Assembly (NCBI GenBank): GCA_964609145.1
Contig: CAZSRI010000001.1
Coordinates: 21,651 to 82,346, forward strand
Length of the DNA stretch: 60,696 nucleotides
Direction: 5' to 3'
Source of the DNA: an uncultured Chloroflexota bacterium
GTDB lineage: Bacteria > Chloroflexota > Limnocylindria > P2-11E
The notes under the pieces were generated by a model. It saw nothing but the letters and a program-made list of their open reading frames with translations, was not told the origin of the DNA and did no database searches. Shown here in pieces: positions 57-13,342 of the stretch. The number at the start of each line of letters is the position of its first letter. The first letter of the stretch is position 1. The position numbers were made by a program, and so were the translations under genes.

Positions 57-2081
57 GTGGAGGGCGCTCGCGCATTCGGCCCGCCGAGCCCCGGCGAGCC
101 AGCTGGGAGCACGGGGCTTCCTTTCGAGGATGTTGGTCCTCGGCACCGATCTGATGCCACTTGGCATCAAGCTGGTGCCGAGCGGCATCACGTTGATGCC
201 AAGTGGCACCGATCTGGTGCCGAGGCACGTACCCCCGCAGATGAGACCCCGCGGCCTTCGCGCGCGGGCACGGTTCCGGACCGGCAGGTCTCCACCACCG
301 AGTGGCGGGCGACCGCTGCCTTCCTGCTCGTCAACGTGTTCGCGATCGCCTGGGTCCTGGTCGCCGTCCTCCAGCCGTGGGTCGCGAAGGGCGGCGACCC
401 CGTCCCCGAGAGCCTCATGCACAAGTGGCTGCCGCTCTCGCTCGCATTCGCGGCGCTCGGCACCGCGCTCGTCGCGCGAGTGCTCGCGCCGCCGGCGCGG
501 AGCCGTCTCCTCCGTGGCCACTTCGTCCTCTACCTCGTCCCGCTCGCGCTGATGCTGCTCGAGCTGTTCGGCGAGGCGTCGGTGGCGAACGGCCAGCGCG
601 GCGCGGTCTACCTGCTCCTCGCGGTCGTCTTCGTCGTGAACGCGCTCGCCGCACTGTGGCCGGCGGTCGACCGGCTCACGGACCGGGCCGGCGCGCTCCA
701 GCTCGGCGTCGTCGCGCTCGTCGCGATGCTCGTCCTGCTCCCGTATCACCGCGCGGTGATGCCGACCGCGTCGGACGAGCCGCACTACCTCGTCGTGACG
801 CTGAGCCTCCTGAACGAACGCTCGCTGAACGTCGCCGCCGAATACGAGGGGACCCGATACAACGCGTTCTACCCGGGCCGGCTGCCGGACATCCACGGGG
901 TGCGCGTCGGCGACGCGATCTATTCGATCCGGGATCTCGGGCTACCGCTCCTGGCGACGGTCCCGTACGCGATCGCGGGACGGCTCGGTGTCCTCGCGCT
1001 GCTCTCCCTCGTCGGCGCGGCGCTCGCGGCGCAGCTCTACCTCCTGCTGCGCGACCTGGGCTTCGCGCCGCGCGTCGCCCTCCTCGGCGCGGCGTCGACC
1101 GCCCTCGCCCATCCGATCTTCACCTACACCACGCAGATCTACCCCGAGCTCCTCACGGCGCTCGTGTTCGTCACCGCCGTGCGCGCGGTCCGCTGGGGCG
1201 AGCGCGCGACGAGCCGCGAGCTCGCCGTCGCGAGCGCGCTCGTCGGCGCGCTGCCGTGGCTGTCGACGCGGGCGTGGCCGACGGTCGTCGGCCTCGGTCT
1301 CGTCGTCGCGTACGCGGCGCTGCGCCCGCTCTGGCGGGGCGCGCCGGCGCGCCTCGTCGCGCCGCGCGTCGCCGCGGGCGCGCTTCCCTTCGCCGCGCTC
1401 GTGCTCGCGCTGTCCTTCGTCAACTGGCGCACGCTCGGGCTGTTCATGCCGAGCGCGGGCTACTTCCTCATTCGCGAGCAGCAGCCGGTCCTCGCGTACA
1501 CGCCGTGGGTCGGCGCGCCCGGGCTGCTGTTCGACCGCGTCTTCGGCCTCGTCCCCCGCGCGCCGATCTACCTGCTCGCGTTCCTCGGAGCGATCCCGCT
1601 GTGGCGGCGCGCGCGCGAGCACGGTGCCGAGCTCGTCGCGCTCGCCCTGGGCGCGCTGCTGTCGTTCGCGTACATCGCCGACATCGCGTACTGGTGGGCC
1701 GACGGCTCTCCGCCGTCGCGGTACACGCTCGGCTCCCTCCCGCTGCTCGTCGCCGCGGTCGCCGGCGGGTGGGAGCTCGCGCTCGACGGCCCGCGCTGGG
1801 CGCGCGCGCTCGCGGGGCTCGCGCTCGCCGCGTCGGCGGCGGTCGCGTACGTGTATGCGGTGCTGCCGAACATCCGCTACGACCTCGCGCTCGACGTGCG
1901 CGCCGGCGGCTCGTCGGGCGGGCTCTTCACGTTCGCGCAGCGCGCGCTCGGCGTCGACGTCGGGCGTGTCTTTCCGTCGCTCGTCACCGCGAGCGGCGTC
2001 GACGTCGCGCTCACGCTCGCGTGGATCGCGCTCGCGGCCGTCCTCGTCTGGCTCGGGAGCCGCGCGAGGGCGCCGCGATGA
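57..2081 (+). CDS. Polytopic membrane protein, GT-C / ArnT-PMT-like glycosyltransferase candidate (start uncertain)
   Basis: The ORF translation has many hydrophobic spans (AAFLLVNVFAIAWVLVAVL, LVPLALMLLELF, GVLALLSLVGAALAAQLYLLL and others). Its stop overlaps the next start (ATGA at 2078-2081). The first ~60 codons run through the repeat arrays at 3-56 and 142-228. No in-frame ATG/GTG/TTG lies between 229 and GTG 336 or ATG 417, so the N-terminus is unresolved. Confidence 0.5.
   Translation: MEGARAFGPPSPGEPAGSTGLPFEDVGPRHRSDATWHQAGAERHHVDAKWHRSGAEARTPADETPRPSRAGTVPDRQVSTTEWRATAAFLLVNVFAIAWVLVAVLQPWVAKGGDPVPESLMHKWLPLSLAFAALGTALVARVLAPPARSRLLRGHFVLYLVPLALMLLELFGEASVANGQRGAVYLLLAVVFVVNALAALWPAVDRLTDRAGALQLGVVALVAMLVLLPYHRAVMPTASDEPHYLVVTLSLLNERSLNVAAEYEGTRYNAFYPGRLPDIHGVRVGDAIYSIRDLGLPLLATVPYAIAGRLGVLALLSLVGAALAAQLYLLLRDLGFAPRVALLGAASTALAHPIFTYTTQIYPELLTALVFVTAVRAVRWGERATSRELAVASALVGALPWLSTRAWPTVVGLGLVVAYAALRPLWRGAPARLVAPRVAAGALPFAALVLALSFVNWRTLGLFMPSAGYFLIREQQPVLAYTPWVGAPGLLFDRVFGLVPRAPIYLLAFLGAIPLWRRAREHGAELVALALGALLSFAYIADIAYWWADGSPPSRYTLGSLPLLVAAVAGGWELALDGPRWARALAGLALAASAAVAYVYAVLPNIRYDLALDVRAGGSSGGLFTFAQRALGVDVGRVFPSLVTASGVDVALTLAWIALAAVLVWLGSRARAPR
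142..228. repeat. Array R1: 8-9 hexamer half-sites GGCAYC / GRTGCC with alternating 11/10-bp spacing (21-bp period)
   Basis: Half-sites: GGCACC 142, GATGCC 153, GGCATC 163, GGTGCC 174, GGCATC 184, GATGCC 195, GGCACC 205, GGTGCC 216, GGCAC 224. Each neighbouring pair is an inverted repeat, e.g. GATGCC-ACTT-GGCATC. The array is homologous to 10609-10709. Confidence 0.85.
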
Positions 2082-5987: not shown

Positions 5988-7085
5988 ATGTCACCCACCG
6001 TGGTGGACGACGTCCTCGAAGAGGTGCGAGAGCGCATCCGCGCCAAGCGCGAGTCGGGCGTGTACGGGCCCGAGGTCGAGGCGGCGCTGCGGCTCCCGCT
6101 CCCCGGCGGCCGGCCGCTCTTCAGCGCGGAGCTCGGCGACCCGTTCCCGGCGCTGCGCGACGCGATCGACGAGCGCGTCGAGTACGACCCGCGCAGCCGC
6201 AAGCCGTTCGTCGGGCCGGTCGTCACGGCCGCGCGGCGCGTCGTCATGGGGCTCGCGCGCTGGTGGCTCGCGGCGATGGGGGAGCGCCAGGAGCGCATCG
6301 ACCGCCTCGCGTTCCGCGCCCTGCTCGACCTGCGCGAGCGCCCGAACCCGGGCTTCGACGAGCGCCTCCGCCGCCTCGAGACGGAGTGGGCACGCTTCCG
6401 CCGCGACCTCGTGGCGGCGGACCTGCACAGCACCTACTTCCAGGCGCGCTTCGGCGGCGACGAGCCCGTCATCCGCGAGCAGTCGGAGCGCTTCCTCGAC
6501 CTGTACCGCGGCCGCCACCGCGTCCTCGACCTCGGGAGCGGCCGCGGGATCTTCCTCGACCTCGTGCGCGAGCAGGGGATCGGCGCGTACGGCGTCGACC
6601 TCGACCCGCGGACTATCGGGATCGCGCGCGGCAAGGGCCTCGAGGTCGTCGAGGCCGACGCGCTCGCGCACCTGCGGGCGCTCGCGCCGAGCGCGATCGA
6701 CGGCGTGTACGCGCGCCACCTCGCCGAGCACGTCCTCCCCGGCGAGCTCGTCGCGATCCTGCGCGAGAGCCGCCGCGTCCTCGCGCCCGGGTCGCCCGTC
6801 GTCTTCGTGACGCCGAACCCCTCGACGCTCACCGTCGGCGCGCACACGTTCTGGCTCGACCCGGGGCACATCCGGCCGATCCCCGCGGAGCTCTTCCGCT
6901 TCCTCCTCGAGGTCGAGGGCTACGAGGACGTGCGGGTCGTGACGTTCGAGCCGACGCAGGGCGCCAAGCTCGCCGAGTCGGGCGACGACGCCGCGCGCGC
7001 GAACGCGCGCATGCTGAACGAGCTGCTCTTCGGCGACCGCGACTACGCGGTCATCGGGCACGCGCCGTTCGTGGCCAAGGCGTGA
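5988..7085 (+). CDS. SAM-dependent methyltransferase with a long helical N-terminal extension
   Basis: The C-terminal half has RVLDLGSGRGIF...DGVYARHLAEHV...LAPGSPVVFVTPN. About 170 N-terminal residues are Arg/Glu/Leu-rich. It diverges from fpg with only a 10-bp gap. Confidence 0.75.
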   Translation: MSPTVVDDVLEEVRERIRAKRESGVYGPEVEAALRLPLPGGRPLFSAELGDPFPALRDAIDERVEYDPRSRKPFVGPVVTAARRVVMGLARWWLAAMGERQERIDRLAFRALLDLRERPNPGFDERLRRLETEWARFRRDLVAADLHSTYFQARFGGDEPVIREQSERFLDLYRGRHRVLDLGSGRGIFLDLVREQGIGAYGVDLDPRTIGIARGKGLEVVEADALAHLRALAPSAIDGVYARHLAEHVLPGELVAILRESRRVLAPGSPVVFVTPNPSTLTVGAHTFWLDPGHIRPIPAELFRFLLEVEGYEDVRVVTFEPTQGAKLAESGDDAARANARMLNELLFGDRDYAVIGHAPFVAKA

Positions 7086-7088
7086 ACC

Positions 7089-7121
7089 GGGGGGTGGAAG
7101 GGGGGCAGCGCCCGCCTGCGA
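7089..7121 (-). repeat. G/C-run hairpin element E3 (diverged), intergenic
   Basis: The reverse complement TCGCAGGCGGGCGCTGCCCCCCTTCCACCCCCC shares both ends with E2 and E8. It lies between the methyltransferase stop (7085) and the GT start. Confidence 0.7.
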
Positions 7122-7159
7122 TACCCAAGGCCTGGCGCTTCGCGGGTCCGCCAGGCGCC

Positions 7160-8209
7160 GTGCACCAGTTCCACCCCGTACTCGCGCCGGGCGACGCGAT
7201 GAGCGCGCACGTGTTCGCGCTGCGCGAGCGGATCCGCGAGTGGGGCTATGAGTCGTACGCCTACGCGGTCGAGGTGAAGCCCGGGGTGACGGGCGCGCTG
7301 TCGTACCGCCGGCTCTTCCGCGCGGTGAGGCCGAACGACCTGCTCATCCTCCACTTCTCGATAGGCCACGAGGCCTTCGACCGCCTCGCGCGGCTCGAAG
7401 CGCGGAAGGTCCTCGTCTATCACAACGTCACGCCGCCGCAGTTCTTCAGCGGGATCAACGACCACGCCGCGGTGCACGCGCGCCTCGGGCTGCGCCAGCT
7501 CGCCGGGCTCGCGGCGCACGTCGACCTCGCGATCGGCGTGTCCGAGTTCGACCGCAACGACCTCGCCGAGGTCGGCTTCACGAACACGGCGACCGTGCCG
7601 ATCCTCATCGATTGGTCGCGGTACGACGTCGCGCCCGACGACGGCGTCCTCGCCGCGCTCGCGCGGCCACGCACGCGGATCCTTTTCGTCGGCCGCATCT
7701 CGCCGAACAAGCGCCAGGACGACCTCATCCGGATGCTCGCGTACTACCGCGCGTGCGTCGACGCGGACGCGCAGCTGTTCCTCGTCGGGTCGTACCGCGA
7801 CCAGCCGCAGTACCACGCGCGCTGCGCGGCGCTGCGCGACGCGCTGGATCTGGGGACCGCGGTCACGTTCACGGGGCCCGTGAGCATGGGCGCGCTCGTC
7901 GCGTACTACCGCAGCGCGTCGGTGTTCTGCTCGCTCTCGGAGCACGAGGGCTTCGGCGTGCCGCTCCTGGAGGCGATGCGCTTCGAGCTGCCGATCGTCG
8001 CGTACGAGGCCGCGGCCATCGGCGAGACGCTCGACGGCGCGGGGGTGAGGCTGCCGCGCAAGGACCTCGCCGAGGCGGCCGAGGCGTGCGCGCTCGTCGT
8101 CGAGCGCGCCGATCTGCGCGATCGGCTCATCGAGGCGGGCACGCGCCGCGTCGCCGACTTCTCCACGGATGCCGTGGCGCGCCGCACGCGCGAGGTGCTC
8201 GGTCTATGA
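7160..8209 (+). CDS. Glycosyltransferase, GT4-like (GT-B fold)
   Basis: Contains RISPNKRQDDLI and SEHEGFGVPLLEAM (EX7E-type motif). The GTG 7160 start was chosen because VHQFHPVLAPGDA aligns with AYQFVATAAYGDA at the N-terminus of the next gene. ATG 7199 is the alternative start. Confidence 0.75.
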   Translation: MHQFHPVLAPGDAMSAHVFALRERIREWGYESYAYAVEVKPGVTGALSYRRLFRAVRPNDLLILHFSIGHEAFDRLARLEARKVLVYHNVTPPQFFSGINDHAAVHARLGLRQLAGLAAHVDLAIGVSEFDRNDLAEVGFTNTATVPILIDWSRYDVAPDDGVLAALARPRTRILFVGRISPNKRQDDLIRMLAYYRACVDADAQLFLVGSYRDQPQYHARCAALRDALDLGTAVTFTGPVSMGALVAYYRSASVFCSLSEHEGFGVPLLEAMRFELPIVAYEAAAIGETLDGAGVRLPRKDLAEAAEACALVVERADLRDRLIEAGTRRVADFSTDAVARRTREVLGL

Positions 8210-10434
8210 AGCTCGAGCGCGCGTACCAGTTCGTCGCGACCGCGGCGTACGGCGACGCGATCGGCGGCGACGTCTTCGAGCTGCAGCGGCTCTTCTGGAA
8301 GCGCGGCGTCGCGAGCGAGGTCTTCGCGCAGGAGGCGCGCACGCCGATCGCGCCGTTCGTCCGCCCCTGGCACGACCTGCACGCGGAGCCGGTGGACGCA
8401 TCCGCGCTCCTCGTCCACGTCTCGATGGGGAACGACGCCCTCTCCGAGGTCGCGCGGCTGCCGCACCGCAAGGCCGTCGTCTACCACAACATCACGCCGG
8501 CTCGGTTCTTCGAGGGGATCAGCGAGCAGCTCCTCGCGCACAGCCGCCTCGGGCGCGAGCAGCTGCGCGAGCTCGCGACGTCCGCGGAGCTGGGGATCGC
8601 CGACAGCGAGTTCAACCGCCAGGAGCTCGAGGCCGTCGGCTACGCGCGCACCGCCGTCGTCCCGATCCTCGTCGACCCGCGCGCGTTCGACGTCGAGCCG
8701 GATCCCGCGACGGTCGCCGAGCTCGCCGACGAGCGCACCGACGTCCTCGTCGCGGGCCAGATCCTCCCGCAGAAGGCGATCCTCGACGTGCTCGACGGAT
8801 TCGCGCGATACCGCGAGAGCGACCCGACCGCGCGCCTGCACCTCGTCGGCACGACCGCGATGTCGGGACCGTACCTCGACCGCGTACGCGAGCGGACCAG
8901 CCGGCTCGGGATCGGCGGCGCCGTGCGCCTCACCGGCGCCGTCTCGATCGAGCGGTACGTCGCGTACTTCCGCGGCTCGACGCTGCTCCTCACGCTCTCC
9001 GACCACGAGGGCTTCTGCGTGCCGCTCCTCGAGGCGATGCGCGCGGGGCTGCCCATCGTCGCGCACGCGGCGGGCGCCACGCCCGAGACGCTCGGCGACG
9101 CGGGGATCCTCCTCGAGCGGAAGTCGCCAGACCTCGTCGCCGCGGCGCTCGAGCGCGCGGTGCGCGACCAGGACCTCCGCCGCGATCTCGTCGAGAAAGG
9201 GCGCCGCCGGCTCGAGGACTTCGCGGCCCCGCGCGTGGCCGAGCGGCTCGGGCGGGCGCTCGCGACGGTAGGGTGGGAGCTGCCGCCCGAGCGGACGCGC
9301 CGCGTGACCGTGCTCTCGAGCGACCAGCGCTGCGGGATCCACCACTACGCGCTCGCCGTCTGCGACGGGCTGCGCGCGAACGGCCACGAGGTGACGTTCG
9401 TCGGCGTCCGCCACCTCGACACCGGCGACCTCTACCGGAAGGTCGGCGGGATCGCGAAGGGTGAGACCGTGCTCGTCGAGCACGAGGCCGGGATCTTCCG
9501 CGACGTGCCGTTCGTGCGCGTCCTGCTCGACCTGAAGCGCCGGGGACACCGGATCGTGCTCTCGCTCCACGAGCTCGAGCCCGAGAAGTTCCATCACTAC
9601 CGGAGGCTGTCCGCGGCGCTCCATTACCGGCCGCGCTTCCGGTGGTGGATCGAGGCGGGCCGCGCGTTCTGGGTCGCGGCACGGATCGCCAACTGGTTCG
9701 TGCGCTACAGGGCCGTGCTCGGCCTCATGGGGTCGCTGCCCGACCGGCTCGTCGTGCACTCGTCGCGCTCCGGCTACTGGCTCGACCTCCTCACGCACGA
9801 CGCGGGCAAGCGCGACGAGTTCCCGCTCGCGCTCATGCCGATCGAAGAAGAGCGTGGGGGGGCTCTGCCCCCCCACGTGCCCCCCCGTCATGCCGCGGCA
9901 AAGCGCGAGCTCCGGAGGAGCCTCGGGCTGCCGGAGGACGCGTTCATCTTCATTTCGCCGGGGTTCTTCTTCCCGCGCAAGCGATACCTCGAGGTGATCG
10001 GCGCGCTGCCGGACGACGCCGTGCTCGTGCTCTCGGGCACGCGCTCCGACCGCGAGCCCGAGTACTTCGACCGCGTGCTCGAGGCCGCCAAGGCGAAGCC
10101 GAACGTGGTCGTGAACACCGACTACGACTCGATGGGGCGGTACGTCGCCGCGTCCGACGCCGTCGTGCTCTTCTACGACGACGTCTTTCAGAGCGCGATC
10201 GTCACTCAGGCCGTGTGGGCGGGCTTGCCGTGCATCTTCTCCAGCACGCCGGGCCTCCGGCTCTTCCACGGCGCCGGGCTCGTCGCGCGCGACACCGACG
10301 AGCTGCGCCGGCACATGGAGGCGATCCGCGAGCCCGACACGTACGAGCGCCTGCGCCGCGGCGTGAGCGTGCTGCGGCGGATGCTCGCGCCGGAGCGGGT
10401 CGTGGCTCGGTACCTCGTCGGCGTCGGCGGGTAG
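8206..10434 (+). CDS. Two-domain glycosyltransferase (N-terminal GT4 module paralogous to 7160..8209, plus a second GT-B-like module)
   Basis: 742 aa. The first module carries SDHEGFCVPLLEAM. The second module starts around RRVTVLSSDQRCGIHHY. The ATG overlaps the upstream stop (ATGA at 8206-8209). Confidence 0.75.
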   Translation: MKLERAYQFVATAAYGDAIGGDVFELQRLFWKRGVASEVFAQEARTPIAPFVRPWHDLHAEPVDASALLVHVSMGNDALSEVARLPHRKAVVYHNITPARFFEGISEQLLAHSRLGREQLRELATSAELGIADSEFNRQELEAVGYARTAVVPILVDPRAFDVEPDPATVAELADERTDVLVAGQILPQKAILDVLDGFARYRESDPTARLHLVGTTAMSGPYLDRVRERTSRLGIGGAVRLTGAVSIERYVAYFRGSTLLLTLSDHEGFCVPLLEAMRAGLPIVAHAAGATPETLGDAGILLERKSPDLVAAALERAVRDQDLRRDLVEKGRRRLEDFAAPRVAERLGRALATVGWELPPERTRRVTVLSSDQRCGIHHYALAVCDGLRANGHEVTFVGVRHLDTGDLYRKVGGIAKGETVLVEHEAGIFRDVPFVRVLLDLKRRGHRIVLSLHELEPEKFHHYRRLSAALHYRPRFRWWIEAGRAFWVAARIANWFVRYRAVLGLMGSLPDRLVVHSSRSGYWLDLLTHDAGKRDEFPLALMPIEEERGGALPPHVPPRHAAAKRELRRSLGLPEDAFIFISPGFFFPRKRYLEVIGALPDDAVLVLSGTRSDREPEYFDRVLEAAKAKPNVVVNTDYDSMGRYVAASDAVVLFYDDVFQSAIVTQAVWAGLPCIFSSTPGLRLFHGAGLVARDTDELRRHMEAIREPDTYERLRRGVSVLRRMLAPERVVARYLVGVGG
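9853..9885 (+). repeat. G/C-run hairpin element E4, in-frame inside the two-domain GT
   Basis: Sequence CGTGGGGGGG-CTCTG-CCCCCCACG-TG-CCCCCCC, translated RGGALPPHVPP. Confidence 0.8.
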
Positions 10435-10505
10435 GGGCTCCGACGAGGAGAAGGGAGAGGTCTCCACGGCGTTCTTCGCCCTGCTGGCACCTCGGGCGGC
10501 GCGAG

Positions 10506-10547
10506 GTGGAGACCGTGTCTCCCAGCGTGGAGACCGTGTCTCCCAGC
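10506..10547. repeat. Perfect tandem duplication of a 21-bp unit GTGGAGACCGTGTCTCCCAGC
   Basis: Units lie at 10506-10526 and 10527-10547. Each contains the palindrome GAGAC-CGT-GTCTC. An inverted partial copy GGTCTCCAC lies at 10459-10467. Confidence 0.9.
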
Positions 10548-10608
10548 AGAGGTGTGCGAGGCGGCGAGAGATCGGGCGACGGACCTCCTGATCAGGGGGA
10601 CGAGGATC

Positions 10609-10709
10609 GGCATCAAGTTGACGCCACTTGGCATCAGATCGATGCCGCTTGGCGTTCTACCGCAGCGCGCTTGCATCAAGTTGATGCCGATCGGCACCAG
10701 ATCGGTGCC
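10609..10709. repeat. Array R2: 10 half-sites GGCAYC / GRTGCC in 11/10-bp phase (21-bp period), homologous to R1
   Basis: Half-sites start at 10609, 10620, 10630, 10641, 10651, (10662 degenerate), 10672, 10683, 10693 and 10704. The 3' ~40 nt align with 184-228 at roughly four-fifths identity by hand. Confidence 0.85.
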
Positions 10710-10784
10710 AGTCCGCTCAGTGGCGCGGAGGAGGTCCCCAGGCCGGATGAACGAGTACAGGGAGCGCGCGAAATGACGGGCTGT

Positions 10785-10810
10785 CGTTCAGCGGCTGCGT
10801 TCAGCGGCTG
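10785..10810. repeat. Tandem 13-bp repeat CGTTCAGCGGCTG, 2 copies
   Basis: Units lie at 10785-10797 and 10798-10810. Each holds the palindrome CAGC-G-GCTG. Confidence 0.85.
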
Positions 10811-10893
10811 AAGGAGGCGCGAGACGGGAAGTACGACTTTGACGAAGGCTGTTCCAGGGCCGGAGTGTCGTGGTGCGGAAAGAGACGACCCTG

Positions 10894-10941
10894 AGGAAGG
10901 GTGCCTCGGGTGACGGGAGGAAGGGTGCCTCGGGTGACGGG
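10894..10941. repeat. Perfect tandem 24-bp repeat AGGAAGGGTGCCTCGGGTGACGGG, 2 copies
   Basis: Units lie at 10894-10917 and 10918-10941. If ORF 10870.. were used from its first GTG, the repeat would encode RKGASGDG twice. Confidence 0.9.
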
Positions 10942-10959
10942 CCCCCGCAGCGCCACGCC

Positions 10960-12129
10960 GTGAGGCGTCGGATCCTCGTCGTCGTCCAGCGGTACGGCGC
11001 GGAGGTCGTCGGCGGGAGCGAGTCGCACGCGCGGACGGTCGCGGAGCGCCTCGCGCGGACGAACGACGTCGACGTCGCGACGACGACCGCGCTCGACTTC
11101 TGGACGTGGGCTCGGCACTACGCGACCGGCGTCAGCCACCTGAACGGCGTCCGCGTGCTGCGCTTCCCGGTCGCCTCCGGGCGCGACCCGAGCTACAAGG
11201 CCATCGAGCACCGCGCGCTCATGGAGGATCACACGCTCGCCGACGAGCGCGCCTGGCTCCGCGCGCAGGGGCCGCATGTACCCGAGCTGCTCGAGCTCCT
11301 CCACCGCGAGGGCGCGGGGTACCAGGTCGTCCTCTTCTACACGTACATCTACGAGCCGACCGCGCTCGGGCTCCCGCTCGTGCCGGAGCGCGCCGCGCTC
11401 GTCTCGACCGCGCACGACGAGCGCCCGCTCCGCCTCGTCCCCTTCCGCCAGTTGTTCGCGCTGCCGCGCGCGTTCGGCTTCCTCGCGCCGGAGGAGCGCG
11501 ACCTCGTCCACCGCGAGTTCCGCAACGAGCACATCCCCGACGAGGTGCTCGGGATCGGGCTCGATCCGCCGCCTGCGCTCGACGACGCCGCGACCTTCCG
11601 CGATCGGCACGGGCTGCGCGGCCCGATCGCGCTCTACCTCGGGCAGGTCAGCGAGGCGAAGGCCGTGGACGAGCTCCTCGCGGCGTGGTCCGGGCGTGGC
11701 CAGGTCGCGCGCGACGGCAGGCTCGTGCTCGCGGGCCCCGCGCAGATGGCGATCCCCGCCCGCGACGACGTCGTCGCCCTCGGGCGCGTGCCCGACGAGG
11801 AGAAGTGGGCCGCGCTCGCGGCCGCGGACGTCGTCGTGCTGCCGAGCCACCTCGAGAGCCTCGGCATCGTGCTCCTGGAGGCCTGGCAGGCGGGCACGCC
11901 CGTCCTCGTCCCGGCGTGGAACGCGGTGACGGCGGGCCAGGTCGCGCGCTCCGGCGGCGGGCTCACGTACGCCTCACCCGGGGCGCTCGCGCCCGCGCTC
12001 GCGGCCCTCTTCGACGAAGGCAAGCGCCGCGGCGAGGCCGGCCGCGAGTGGGTCGCGCGCGAATGCACGTGGGACGCGTTCGACGCGCGCCTCGATCGTC
12101 TCATCGACATGGCGGCCTTCGATGCCTGA
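10960..12129 (+). CDS. Glycosyltransferase (GT-B fold, GT4/GT1-like)
   Basis: Contains RRILVVVQRYGAEVVGGSESHA...PSHLESLGIVLLEAW. GTG 10960 was chosen just before the conserved ILVVVQRYG core. The ORF is open from GTG 10870, which would include the 24-bp repeats. Confidence 0.7.
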   Translation: MRRRILVVVQRYGAEVVGGSESHARTVAERLARTNDVDVATTTALDFWTWARHYATGVSHLNGVRVLRFPVASGRDPSYKAIEHRALMEDHTLADERAWLRAQGPHVPELLELLHREGAGYQVVLFYTYIYEPTALGLPLVPERAALVSTAHDERPLRLVPFRQLFALPRAFGFLAPEERDLVHREFRNEHIPDEVLGIGLDPPPALDDAATFRDRHGLRGPIALYLGQVSEAKAVDELLAAWSGRGQVARDGRLVLAGPAQMAIPARDDVVALGRVPDEEKWAALAAADVVVLPSHLESLGIVLLEAWQAGTPVLVPAWNAVTAGQVARSGGGLTYASPGALAPALAALFDEGKRRGEAGREWVARECTWDAFDARLDRLIDMAAFDA

Positions 12130-13342
12130 TCATCGCGGGGGCGTGACCCCCGCACCCCCCGCCACGCGGTCTTCGCTGTTGGTGGTCGTGCAGCGGTACG
12201 GCGACGTCGCCGGCGGCGCGGAGGCGCACGCGCGCCAGCTCGTCGGGCATCTGAAGCCGCACCTCGACGTCGAGGTCGCGACGACGACCGCGCGCGACTA
12301 CTGGACGTGGGAGAACGCGTTCACCGCGGGCCTCACCTGGGTCGACGGCGTGCCCGTGCGCCGGTTCCCCGTGGCGAAGCCGCGCGCGCGGCTGTTCCGG
12401 ACGTACGAGCGGCGCGCGTTCGCGGGCGACCACTCGCTCCGCGACGAGGAGGCGTTCCTCGACGCGCAGGGTCCCGTGACGCCGGGCCTCCTCGAGTTCC
12501 TCTTCCGTCACGGCCGCGAGTTCGACCACGTCCTCTTCTTCACGTACATCTACTGGACGACCGTCTTCGGCCTGCCCGTCGTGCCGGACCGCGCCGTCCT
12601 CGTCCCGACCGCGCACGAGGAGCCGGCGATCGCGCTCACCTCTTATCGCCGTGTGTTCCACCTGCCGCGTGCGATCGCGTTCAACACCCAGGAGGAGCGC
12701 GCGTTCGTCCACCGCCGCTTCGCGAACACGCGGGTGCCGAACGACGTCGTCGGCGTCGGCGTCGACGTCCCGACGGACGTCTCGGCCGACCGCTTCCGGC
12801 AGGCGCACGGCCTCGAGGGTCCGCTGTTCCTCTACGTCGGTCGCATCGTCGAAAGCAAGGGCGTGCGCGACCTGCTCGACCTGTGGGAGCGCTGGCAGGG
12901 ATCCACGCGGACGCGTGCGACGCTCGTCCTCGCCGGGCATCGCGAGATGCCGATCCCCGACCGCGCCGACGTGCGGTACGTCGGTCACATCGACGACCGC
13001 TCGAAGTGGGACGCGTACGCGGCGTGCACCGCGCTGATCATGCCGAGCCTGCTCGAGTCGCTCTCGATGGTGACGCTCGAGGCGTGGGCGACGGCGAAGC
13101 CGGCGCTCGTGGCGGCGCGCTCCCCCGTCCTCGCGTCGATGGCGCGCCGCGCCGACGCGGGCGTCCCGTATCGCTCGTTCGCCGAGTTCGCCGAGGTCTG
13201 CGAGCTGCTCGTCGCGCGGCCCGAGGTCGGTCGGCGCCTCGGCGAATGCGGGCGCGGCTTCGTCGCGCGGACGTACACATGGCCGGTCGTCGTGGAGAAG
13301 TACCTCGACCTCTTCGCGGAGTCGAAGGCGCGCCGGACATGA
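12122..13342 (+). CDS. Glycosyltransferase, tandem paralog of 10960..12129
   Basis: LLVVVQRYGDVAGGAEAHA...DVEVATTTARDYWTWE parallels the upstream protein. Contains PSLLESLSMVTLEAW. The start overlaps the upstream stop (ATG 12122, TGA 12127-12129). Confidence 0.75.
   Translation: MPDHRGGVTPAPPATRSSLLVVVQRYGDVAGGAEAHARQLVGHLKPHLDVEVATTTARDYWTWENAFTAGLTWVDGVPVRRFPVAKPRARLFRTYERRAFAGDHSLRDEEAFLDAQGPVTPGLLEFLFRHGREFDHVLFFTYIYWTTVFGLPVVPDRAVLVPTAHEEPAIALTSYRRVFHLPRAIAFNTQEERAFVHRRFANTRVPNDVVGVGVDVPTDVSADRFRQAHGLEGPLFLYVGRIVESKGVRDLLDLWERWQGSTRTRATLVLAGHREMPIPDRADVRYVGHIDDRSKWDAYAACTALIMPSLLESLSMVTLEAWATAKPALVAARSPVLASMARRADAGVPYRSFAEFAEVCELLVARPEVGRRLGECGRGFVARTYTWPVVVEKYLDLFAESKARRT
12135..12160 (+). 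repeat. G/C-run hairpin element E5 at a cistron junction
   Basis: Sequence GCGGGGG-CGTGA-CCCCCGC-A-CCCCCC lying 5 nt after the upstream stop, translated RGGVTPAPP at the N-terminus of the GT. Confidence 0.8.

Follow-up and report, generated by a model that had tools for sequence, protein, structure and literature searches.

The window, i.e., the whole 60,696-nucleotide stretch of DNA analyzed here, holds two co-directional GT4 glycosyltransferase genes separated by a non-coding gap that contains a phased array of short palindromes (array 2, Table 1). It stems from the assembly of an uncultured Chloroflexota bacterium (G000:C1:21651-82346), which comprises 2.52 Mb in 193 contigs at 72% G+C and is 87% complete. 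The GTG start of the downstream gene agrees with the starts of its orthologues. Array 2 reads GGCATCAAGTTGACGCC-ACTT-GGCATCAGATCGATGCC-GCTT-GGCGTTCTACCGCAGCG-CGCT-TGCATCAAGTTGATGCC-GATC-GGCACCAGATCGGTGCC and consists of four good 17-bp palindromes plus a weak one on a strict 21-bp grid, with the consensus GGCAYC-N5-GRTGCC. The four fitting units start at offsets 0, 21, 63, and 84 bp and form two doublets with the same core order, the second being identical to the first at 31 of 38 positions. Allowing up to one mismatch, the consensus matches eight times in the window compared with 1.2 matches expected, a number reached in none of 100 shuffles, and all eight matches fall within array 2 or its sister, array 1.

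Table 1 Array 2 and its surroundings in the window, further arrays of the source genome, and their sites in related genomes (coordinates are window positions)
Feature	Position	Strand	Details
Upstream gene, 742-aa double GT4 glycosyltransferase	8206..10434	+	Glycos_transf_1, 1.9e-32 (Pfam); stop 174 nt before array 2
Non-coding gap between the co-directional GT4 genes	10435..10959		Holds array 2 and local tandem duplications
Left arm of 9-bp inverted repeat, GGACCTCCT	10581..10589		19 nt outside array 2; p ~0.05
First doublet of array 2	10609..10646		GGCATCAAGTTGACGCC, spacer ACTT, GGCATCAGATCGATGCC; AAGTT-core unit, then AGATC-core unit; 40.1 bits with covariance model R1
Unit GGCATCAAGTTGACGCC	10609..10625		1 mismatch to consensus
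Unit GGCATCAGATCGATGCC	10630..10646		Perfect match to consensus
In-phase degenerate unit GGCGTTCTACCGCAGCG	10651..10667		5/12 constrained positions wrong
Second doublet of array 2	10672..10709		TGCATCAAGTTGATGCC, spacer GATC, GGCACCAGATCGGTGCC; 47.0 bits with R1
Unit TGCATCAAGTTGATGCC	10672..10688		1 mismatch to consensus
Unit GGCACCAGATCGGTGCC	10693..10709		Perfect match to consensus
Right arm of the same 9-bp inverted repeat, AGGAGGTCC	10729..10737		19 nt outside array 2
Downstream gene, GT4 glycosyltransferase	10960..12129	+	Glycos_transf_1, 5.2e-16 (Pfam); starts 250 nt after array 2
Array 1, sister array of the same family	142..221		Four perfect units
Array C9			54 nt after ychF
Array C119			63 nt after purE
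Array C143			47 nt after cofC-like gene
Array C160			33 nt after anmK
Array C63			Between convergent plsY and rsmE (34 and 23 nt)
Array C15			Between convergent DUF917-like gene and LLM oxidoreductase gene
Array C17			Inside an ORF; in frame in membrane-protein linker
Array C36			Possibly inside an ORF
Site plsY/rsmE, filled			G000 (4 units; 137 bp), G005 (TGGACC-type doublet TGGACCGAATTGGTCCA-GATC-TGGACCGGATCGGTCCA; ~210 bp)
Site plsY/rsmE, empty			G001, G002, G004, G006; genes abut, 4-34 bp
Site purE/purB, filled			G000 (4 units), G002 (CGTGCCAAAACGGCACG-GATC-CGTACCAGATCGGCACG), G005 (TGAACC/TGCACC-type doublet)
Site purE/purB, empty			G001, G004, G006; gaps 2-40 bp
C17 membrane-protein linker, filled			G000 (4 units), G002 (doublet)
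C17 membrane-protein linker without array			G001, G004, G006; linker 74-256 bp
Array-1 site			Filled in G000 (4 units) and G002 (G002-type doublet); empty in G001

Apart from array 2, the gap contains local tandem duplications at 10506-10547 (21 bp, two copies), 10779-10810 (13 bp, 2.4 copies), and 10893-10941 (24 bp, two copies). Only the array portion has copies elsewhere in the genome. The array 2 region is predicted to fold with -87.6 kcal/mol (z = -4.65), the flanking 9-bp inverted repeat acting as closing stem. The equal distance of this repeat on both sides makes a chance occurrence less likely, and none of the outer inverted repeats around the other arrays of the genome was significant. 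Intrinsic terminators consist of a GC-rich hairpin followed by a U tract; no T run is present 3' of any array, and a terminator scan of the gap identified none on the plus strand and a single weak terminator-like hairpin on the minus strand, unrelated to array 2. A promoter scan of the gap yielded no promoter-like site, and a search of window positions 10380-11020 against Rfam 15 returned no match at E <= 1. In three congeners, the orthologues of the two flanking genes are separated by 1139 bp that encode a further GT4-like protein of 376 aa, the adjoining reading frames overlapping at their stops and starts (G001:C39, L053:2601-3731; G004:C56; G006:C17), in place of which the source genome harbors 547 bp of repeat-filled non-coding DNA (window 10422-10968). 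Searches of this gap for a remnant of the congeners' gene via blastn and tblastx gave only noise. Array 2 fills the scar of a lost GT4-like glycosyltransferase gene.

The original prediction described ten phased half-sites extending over 100 bp. Four units do occupy the 21-bp grid, whereas the degenerate site is weak, given its number of wrong positions and the fact that 7% of random 17-mers of the genome equal its match (p = 0.07). It may be a decayed unit or mere spacer, supported mainly by the exact phase of the flanking doublets (63 bp = 3 x 21; chance ~1/21). A same-orientation alignment of 10672-10709 with 184-221 of array 1 had likewise been put forward and was recovered at 28 of 38 positions, but it is not specific: other registers or the opposite orientation of array 1 reach up to 31/38. 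Since these score equally well or better, the similarity reflects the shared unit consensus only. The best genomic match to 10672-10709 is located on another contig (C143; 34/37, reversed), and the AGATC core of the last array 2 unit is inverted relative to that of 205-221 (GATCT).

Genome-wide, the source assembly harbors 36 units in 11 arrays of two or four units (2.5 Mb), with 28 exact units compared with a single one for a reversed-pattern control. Copy number is probably underestimated, as several arrays lie within 2 kb of contig ends. Each unit is composed of a 6-nt GC-rich arm, a 5-nt AT-rich core, and a complementary 6-nt arm, and a 4-nt spacer completes the 21-bp period; the basic element is a 38-bp doublet, two of which make up most copies. 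Array borders are sharp, the adjacent in-phase 17-mers carrying 5-11 mismatches. Genes were located with a self-trained codon model, whose 2508 calls account for 90% of the genome, and flanking proteins were named by eye, two of them being checked with Pfam. Eight to nine of the 11 arrays are intergenic, each with strict 21-bp spacing, the exceptions being the C17 linker and possibly C36 and the array-1 ORFs. Arrays are found 23-174 nt past stop codons at seven loci and between convergent genes at two. Both window arrays do lie 5' of glycosyltransferase genes, as had been pointed out, but this position is not a property of the family, and a regulatory link to these genes is not supported by arrays that mostly follow the stops of unrelated housekeeping genes or, in two cases, separate convergent ones. 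A solitary unit, the only one in the genome, is a perfect copy (GGCATCGACCCGATGCC, G000:C48:12046-12062), preceded at 255 nt by a sigma-54-dependent response-regulator gene and followed at 47 nt by a MerR-like gene.

Array C17 lies in the gene of a GT-C-like membrane protein (G000:C17:13732-15489, L057) whose conserved blocks are joined by a hypervariable linker of ~25-150 aa. All five species (G000, G001, G002, G004, and G006) keep an open reading frame throughout this linker, and the arrays of G000 and G002 are translated in identical codon phase (...RHQIGTEP... and ...PCQIGTEP..., respectively). Similarly, at the array-1 site of G002 (G002:C1:7800-8060, L124), a single open frame runs from the upstream gene through the doublet into the GT-C gene (..ALALAGWLIV..PCQIGTDPCQVGTE..RWSLATFLVLNALL..). 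The window (region 3-2081) likewise has a frame, 57-2081, that stays open across array 1 with the phase seen in G002 (RHRSDAT WHQAGAE RHHVDAK WHRSGAE), whereas the two genes are separate in G001, with overlapping stop and start (ATGA). Directly before the window start, an 18-bp tandem repeat, GATCGGTCGCGGGGCGAG, borders a run of N on either side (G000:C1:21550-21650, L051), probably an assembly gap within a longer tandem array.

Within the source genome, the variable arm position 5:13 is occupied by TA (11), CG (7), CA (9), and TG (8), as expected under independence and hence uncompensated. Mixed units show no bias toward U.G or C.A with respect to transcription direction (6 vs. 5); therefore, hairpin stability is not visibly selected at this position. 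Among word biases of the genome (observed/expected), the arm hexamers GGCACC and GGTGCC are scarce (0.41-0.45), as are CTAG (0.14) and AATT (0.13), whereas GATC is over-represented (3.8). The avoidance of GGCACC might point at a GGYRCC-type restriction system. The idea that GATC in the loops serves as a Dam/SeqA-type signal was rejected, because the 3.8-fold excess of this word extends over the whole genome and is no peculiarity of the arrays.

When 400 genomes of the class as well as genome and metagenome contigs were scanned with the exact pattern, the family was detected only in G000 and the organism of G019, besides a few unrelated look-alikes, and six congeners seemed to lack it. These scans missed the variants of the congeners, since their arms differ; the variants were found through alignment of orthologous sites and subsequently with a covariance model, R1, built from 50 doublets (alignment A1) and run on 61 genomes of the taxonomic family. 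R1 yielded strong hits solely in G000, G002, G005, G006, and G019, and none in G001, G003, or G004, placing the arrays in four of the seven congeneric species and, outside the genus, in G019, a member of a sister genus. Every strong hit measures exactly 38 nt; the 6-5-6-4 geometry is thus invariant, and not a single indel interrupts the 21-bp period in ~60 doublets of five species, despite wholly different arms. Arrays and phase are thus conserved in relatives, contrary to the outcome that would have refuted the original prediction, and the proposal that phase persists despite sequence drift is supported.

The arms of congeners belong to CGTRYC, TGNACC, and CGCATC types, and all share the 6-5-6+4 architecture and AT-rich loops. 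In species-specific pattern scans, the CGTRYC type was confined to G002 (16 doublets) and the TGNACC type to G005 (12 doublets), whereas G006 and G019 each combine two or three arm types in one genome. Loops and spacers are drawn from one small set common to the species (AGATC/GATCC, AACTT/AAATT/AAAAC, and GATC/GAAC/AAGT), the loops being 57-80% A+T in contrast to 72% G+C of the genome. Arm positions G2/C16 and C6/G12 are invariant in all species. Complementarity of the arms is retained (94.5% of cells paired vs. 74.6% in shuffles), and double-sided arm changes across species number 153 vs. 57 expected, although they represent few independent events; positions 3:15 of G005 behave like position 5:13 of G000. 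This dyad symmetry suits both a hairpin and a duplex-binding reading.

Occupancy of orthologous sites differs between species (Table 1). The array-1 site of G001 is classified as empty because the upstream and GT-C genes overlap. G002 occupies three of the four syntenic G000 sites tested, even though only ~16 of its ~2000 gaps carry a doublet, an overlap far beyond chance. In the sister-genus species, whose loci match 'Chloroflexi bacterium RIFCSPLOWO2_02_FULL_71_16', doublets follow three genes, namely sucD (30 nt past the stop), an ABC transporter gene (115 nt), and a helicase gene (180 nt), and the array neighbors have no regulon in common with those of G000. Doublets of G002 and G006 (L124, L075, L064, L094, and L080) are framed by 8-10-bp outer inverted repeats (GATGTGTTTC...GGAACACATC in G002; GTGATCC...GGATCAC in G006) and, if single-stranded, would form a stem bearing two small hairpins. 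In an unrelated metagenome contig (Ga0209528_1009194, L040; 2130 bp, 60% G+C), long arrays of GCACCA-N3-TGGTGCC palindromes that repeat every 21-22 bp are broken up by a conserved ~45-bp segment and take up nearly the whole length, which shows that 21-bp phased palindrome arrays exist elsewhere, too.

The two window arrays bracket a 10.4-kb block of glycan genes, and the original prediction had raised the question whether they are its recombination endpoints, in the manner of att-like sites or cassette borders. Synteny argues strongly against this. G001 is collinear with window positions 6006-10421 and 10969-13321 on either side of array 2, with one extra GT4-like gene in place of the gap, and in G002 the order of upstream gene, GT-C, methyltransferase, Wzt, and metF is kept across array 1, where this genome retains a doublet of its own; therefore, the two arrays are not the ends of one 10-kb unit. 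None of the relatives compared lacks the block, it contains no integrase or transposase, and the nine other arrays of the genome flank nothing comparable. Endpoints are thus hardly credible, despite the bracketing and a tendency of arrays toward variable junctions, which is seen at the ychF and C15 sites, where synteny is broken in congeners and arrays are absent. In this looser sense, including the gene replacement at array 2, the arrays do mark variable junctions. Passive debris, i.e., local slippage and duplication in permissive gaps with occasional gene conversion and without any trans factor or function, would accord with the low copy number, with the position of array 2 at the site of a lost gene, and with the unrelated tandem duplications that fill its gap and the flanks of several other arrays. 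We nevertheless regard it as quite improbable: the same elaborate unit recurs with sharp borders at at least 11 unlinked loci per genome, arms are uniform inside any one genome yet vary from genome to genome at identical sites, the units, at 17-38 bp, make rather short substrates for homologous conversion, and the shared occupancy in G002 far exceeds what its ~16 filled gaps would provide.

Another reading takes the arrays as a phased duplex landing pad, whose 6-bp arms would be recognized by a DNA-binding dimer or oligomer (a nucleoid-associated or insulator-like protein or a regulator). The arms alternate every 10/11 bp without indels and thus place the dyad half-sites on one helix face, and they would co-evolve with the recognition surface of the protein in each species, in which case the genome-wide concerted change of arms at orthologous sites is to be expected. 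The exact geometry in all five species and the invariant arm positions fit this reading, and the variable position, being independent in the two arms, resembles a degenerate half-site rather than a base pair; it is this uncompensated position, together with the 10/11-bp phasing, that keeps protein binding under consideration. We still judge it unlikely. Locations are unlike those of operators (convergent gene ends, 23-60 nt after stops, one copy in a coding linker), no regulon beyond the persistence of sites is common to the species, and two or three arm types coexist in G006 and G019. Moreover, the part conserved across species is the central core, which a helix-turn-helix dimer normally does not read, no candidate protein was found, and the version invoking a sigma-54 enhancer failed when tested.

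We therefore favor, with moderate confidence, a reading of array 2 as one copy of a REP/BIME-like family of palindromic units with no known mobilizing enzyme, acting locally as an intercistronic hairpin cluster. Being dispersed between and inside unrelated genes, the family behaves like E. coli REP/BIME and not like an operator for sugar-transferase genes. How the units spread, and what they do, can be outlined as a model. A trans-acting factor or a copy/conversion process would keep the copies of a genome alike, candidate processes being another enzyme that fills a RAYT-like role or new copies that home into old hairpin sites; doublets would expand locally from two to four units by duplication. 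Intercistronic REPs in E. coli stabilize the upstream message and lower read-through. Array 2, presumably transcribed within the interrupted glycosyltransferase operon, might similarly serve with its stable hairpin cluster as an intercistronic 3' barrier or attenuator, stabilizing the upstream GT4 message and reducing read-through into 10960-12129.

The array 2 finding is real and ordinary in kind, namely the second copy of a dispersed palindromic-unit array, and for annotation purposes it should be recorded as a dispersed repeat, not as a glycan-gene operator or cassette border. The analysis adds species-specific arms at orthologous sites, sites left empty, intragenic copies in frame with their host genes, and a refutation of the endpoint reading. 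REP/BIME-type elements are known almost exclusively from Proteobacteria, in which their occurrence is linked to RAYT transposases. An uncultured Chloroflexota lineage here displays the population behavior of REP/BIME, with species-specific palindromes at persistent sites, empty sister sites, and local expansion, but differs in its much smaller, strictly phased unit and in that RAYT was not detected. If complete genomes confirm this, the family would offer a compact case for what keeps dispersed palindromes alike within a genome. More speculatively, and with low probability in our view, it could represent an undescribed RAYT-independent system, in which a sequence-specific protein or enzyme co-evolves with about a dozen phased arrays of two-helical-turn palindromes per genome. 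All arms of a genome would then switch together while sites, loops, and the 21-bp geometry persist, which would amount either to a novel mode of REP-like propagation or to a novel type of landing pad on the chromosome.

Several known systems share parts of this architecture. ArgR binds ARG boxes, paired 18-bp palindromes 3 bp apart that give a 21-bp period. As in these and other phased operator arrays, dyad sites of 17-18 bp recur every 21 bp with half-sites facing one helix side; ARG boxes, however, have AT-rich arms and lie in the promoters of one conserved regulon, whereas the present arrays occupy 3' ends, convergent gaps, and a coding linker, next to unrelated genes and with arms that differ between congeners. 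NtrC-type enhancer sites (TGCACC-N5-GGTGCA) are 6-5-6 palindromes with very similar arms, and TGCACC/GGTGCA arms even occur in G005 and G019. A sigma-54/NtrC enhancer was rejected: the genome has 139 sigma-54-like sites, all of them more than 500 bp away from the arrays, and congeners possess rpoN whether or not they carry arrays. With MITEs, Correia, ERIC, and RIME elements, the family shares its non-coding, dispersed nature, presence/absence between relatives, and the outer inverted repeats, which are found in the G002 and G006 copies and, in G000, around array 2 only. The target-site duplications and transposase-related terminal repeats of such elements were not seen in the array family, and filled compared with empty sites revealed no direct repeats.

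The closest likeness is to REP/BIME of Enterobacteriaceae and Pseudomonas, including REPIN doublets. RAYT-associated REPs coexist with their cognate RAYT, a Y1 transposase (PF01797) that is often REP-flanked, and usually exceed 100 copies per genome. A search for PF01797 found none in G000, G019, G001, G004, and G006 (MAGs 77-95% complete), whereas six of 14 control genomes matched. REPs number hundreds per genome, in contrast to ~36 units in G000, and REP/BIME units measure 21-65 nt compared with only 17 bp (6-bp stem) here. A conserved 5' GT[AG]G tetranucleotide heads REPs (PMC2817692, PMC3686654); the units described here start with GGCA, CGTG, TGNA, or CGCA, and the 4-mers flanking them are spacer-like (GAGC, ACTT, and GATC), never GTAG. 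BIMEs are REPs at regular spacing with alternating orientation (PMC2817692), which in the present family is visible only in the asymmetric 5-nt cores, as each unit is itself a near-perfect dyad, and the order of cores is not fixed. The period of strictly two helical turns also sets the family apart, the 10/11-bp half-site alternation not being needed for hairpins. Common to both are short, GC-rich, imperfect extragenic palindromes able to form a stem-loop (here via complementary 6-nt arms), mostly after stops or between convergent genes, as well as clusters of fixed spacing that are built from doublets and differ in unit number from site to site. Enrichment in variable loops is described for BIMEs, which have been credited with mRNA stabilization and termination (PMC1187871), turnover of REP classes is seen at syntenic positions (PMC3686654), and palindromic units are species-specific, as summarized in PMC3686654, citing Gilson 1990. 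The family described here likewise combines species-specific sequence at conserved sites, enrichment at variable junctions, and occasional in-frame intragenic copies. Because the GT[AG]G head, the PF01797 gene, and the high copy number all fail, we class it not as a member of the RAYT-REP group but as a family that works like REP/BIME.
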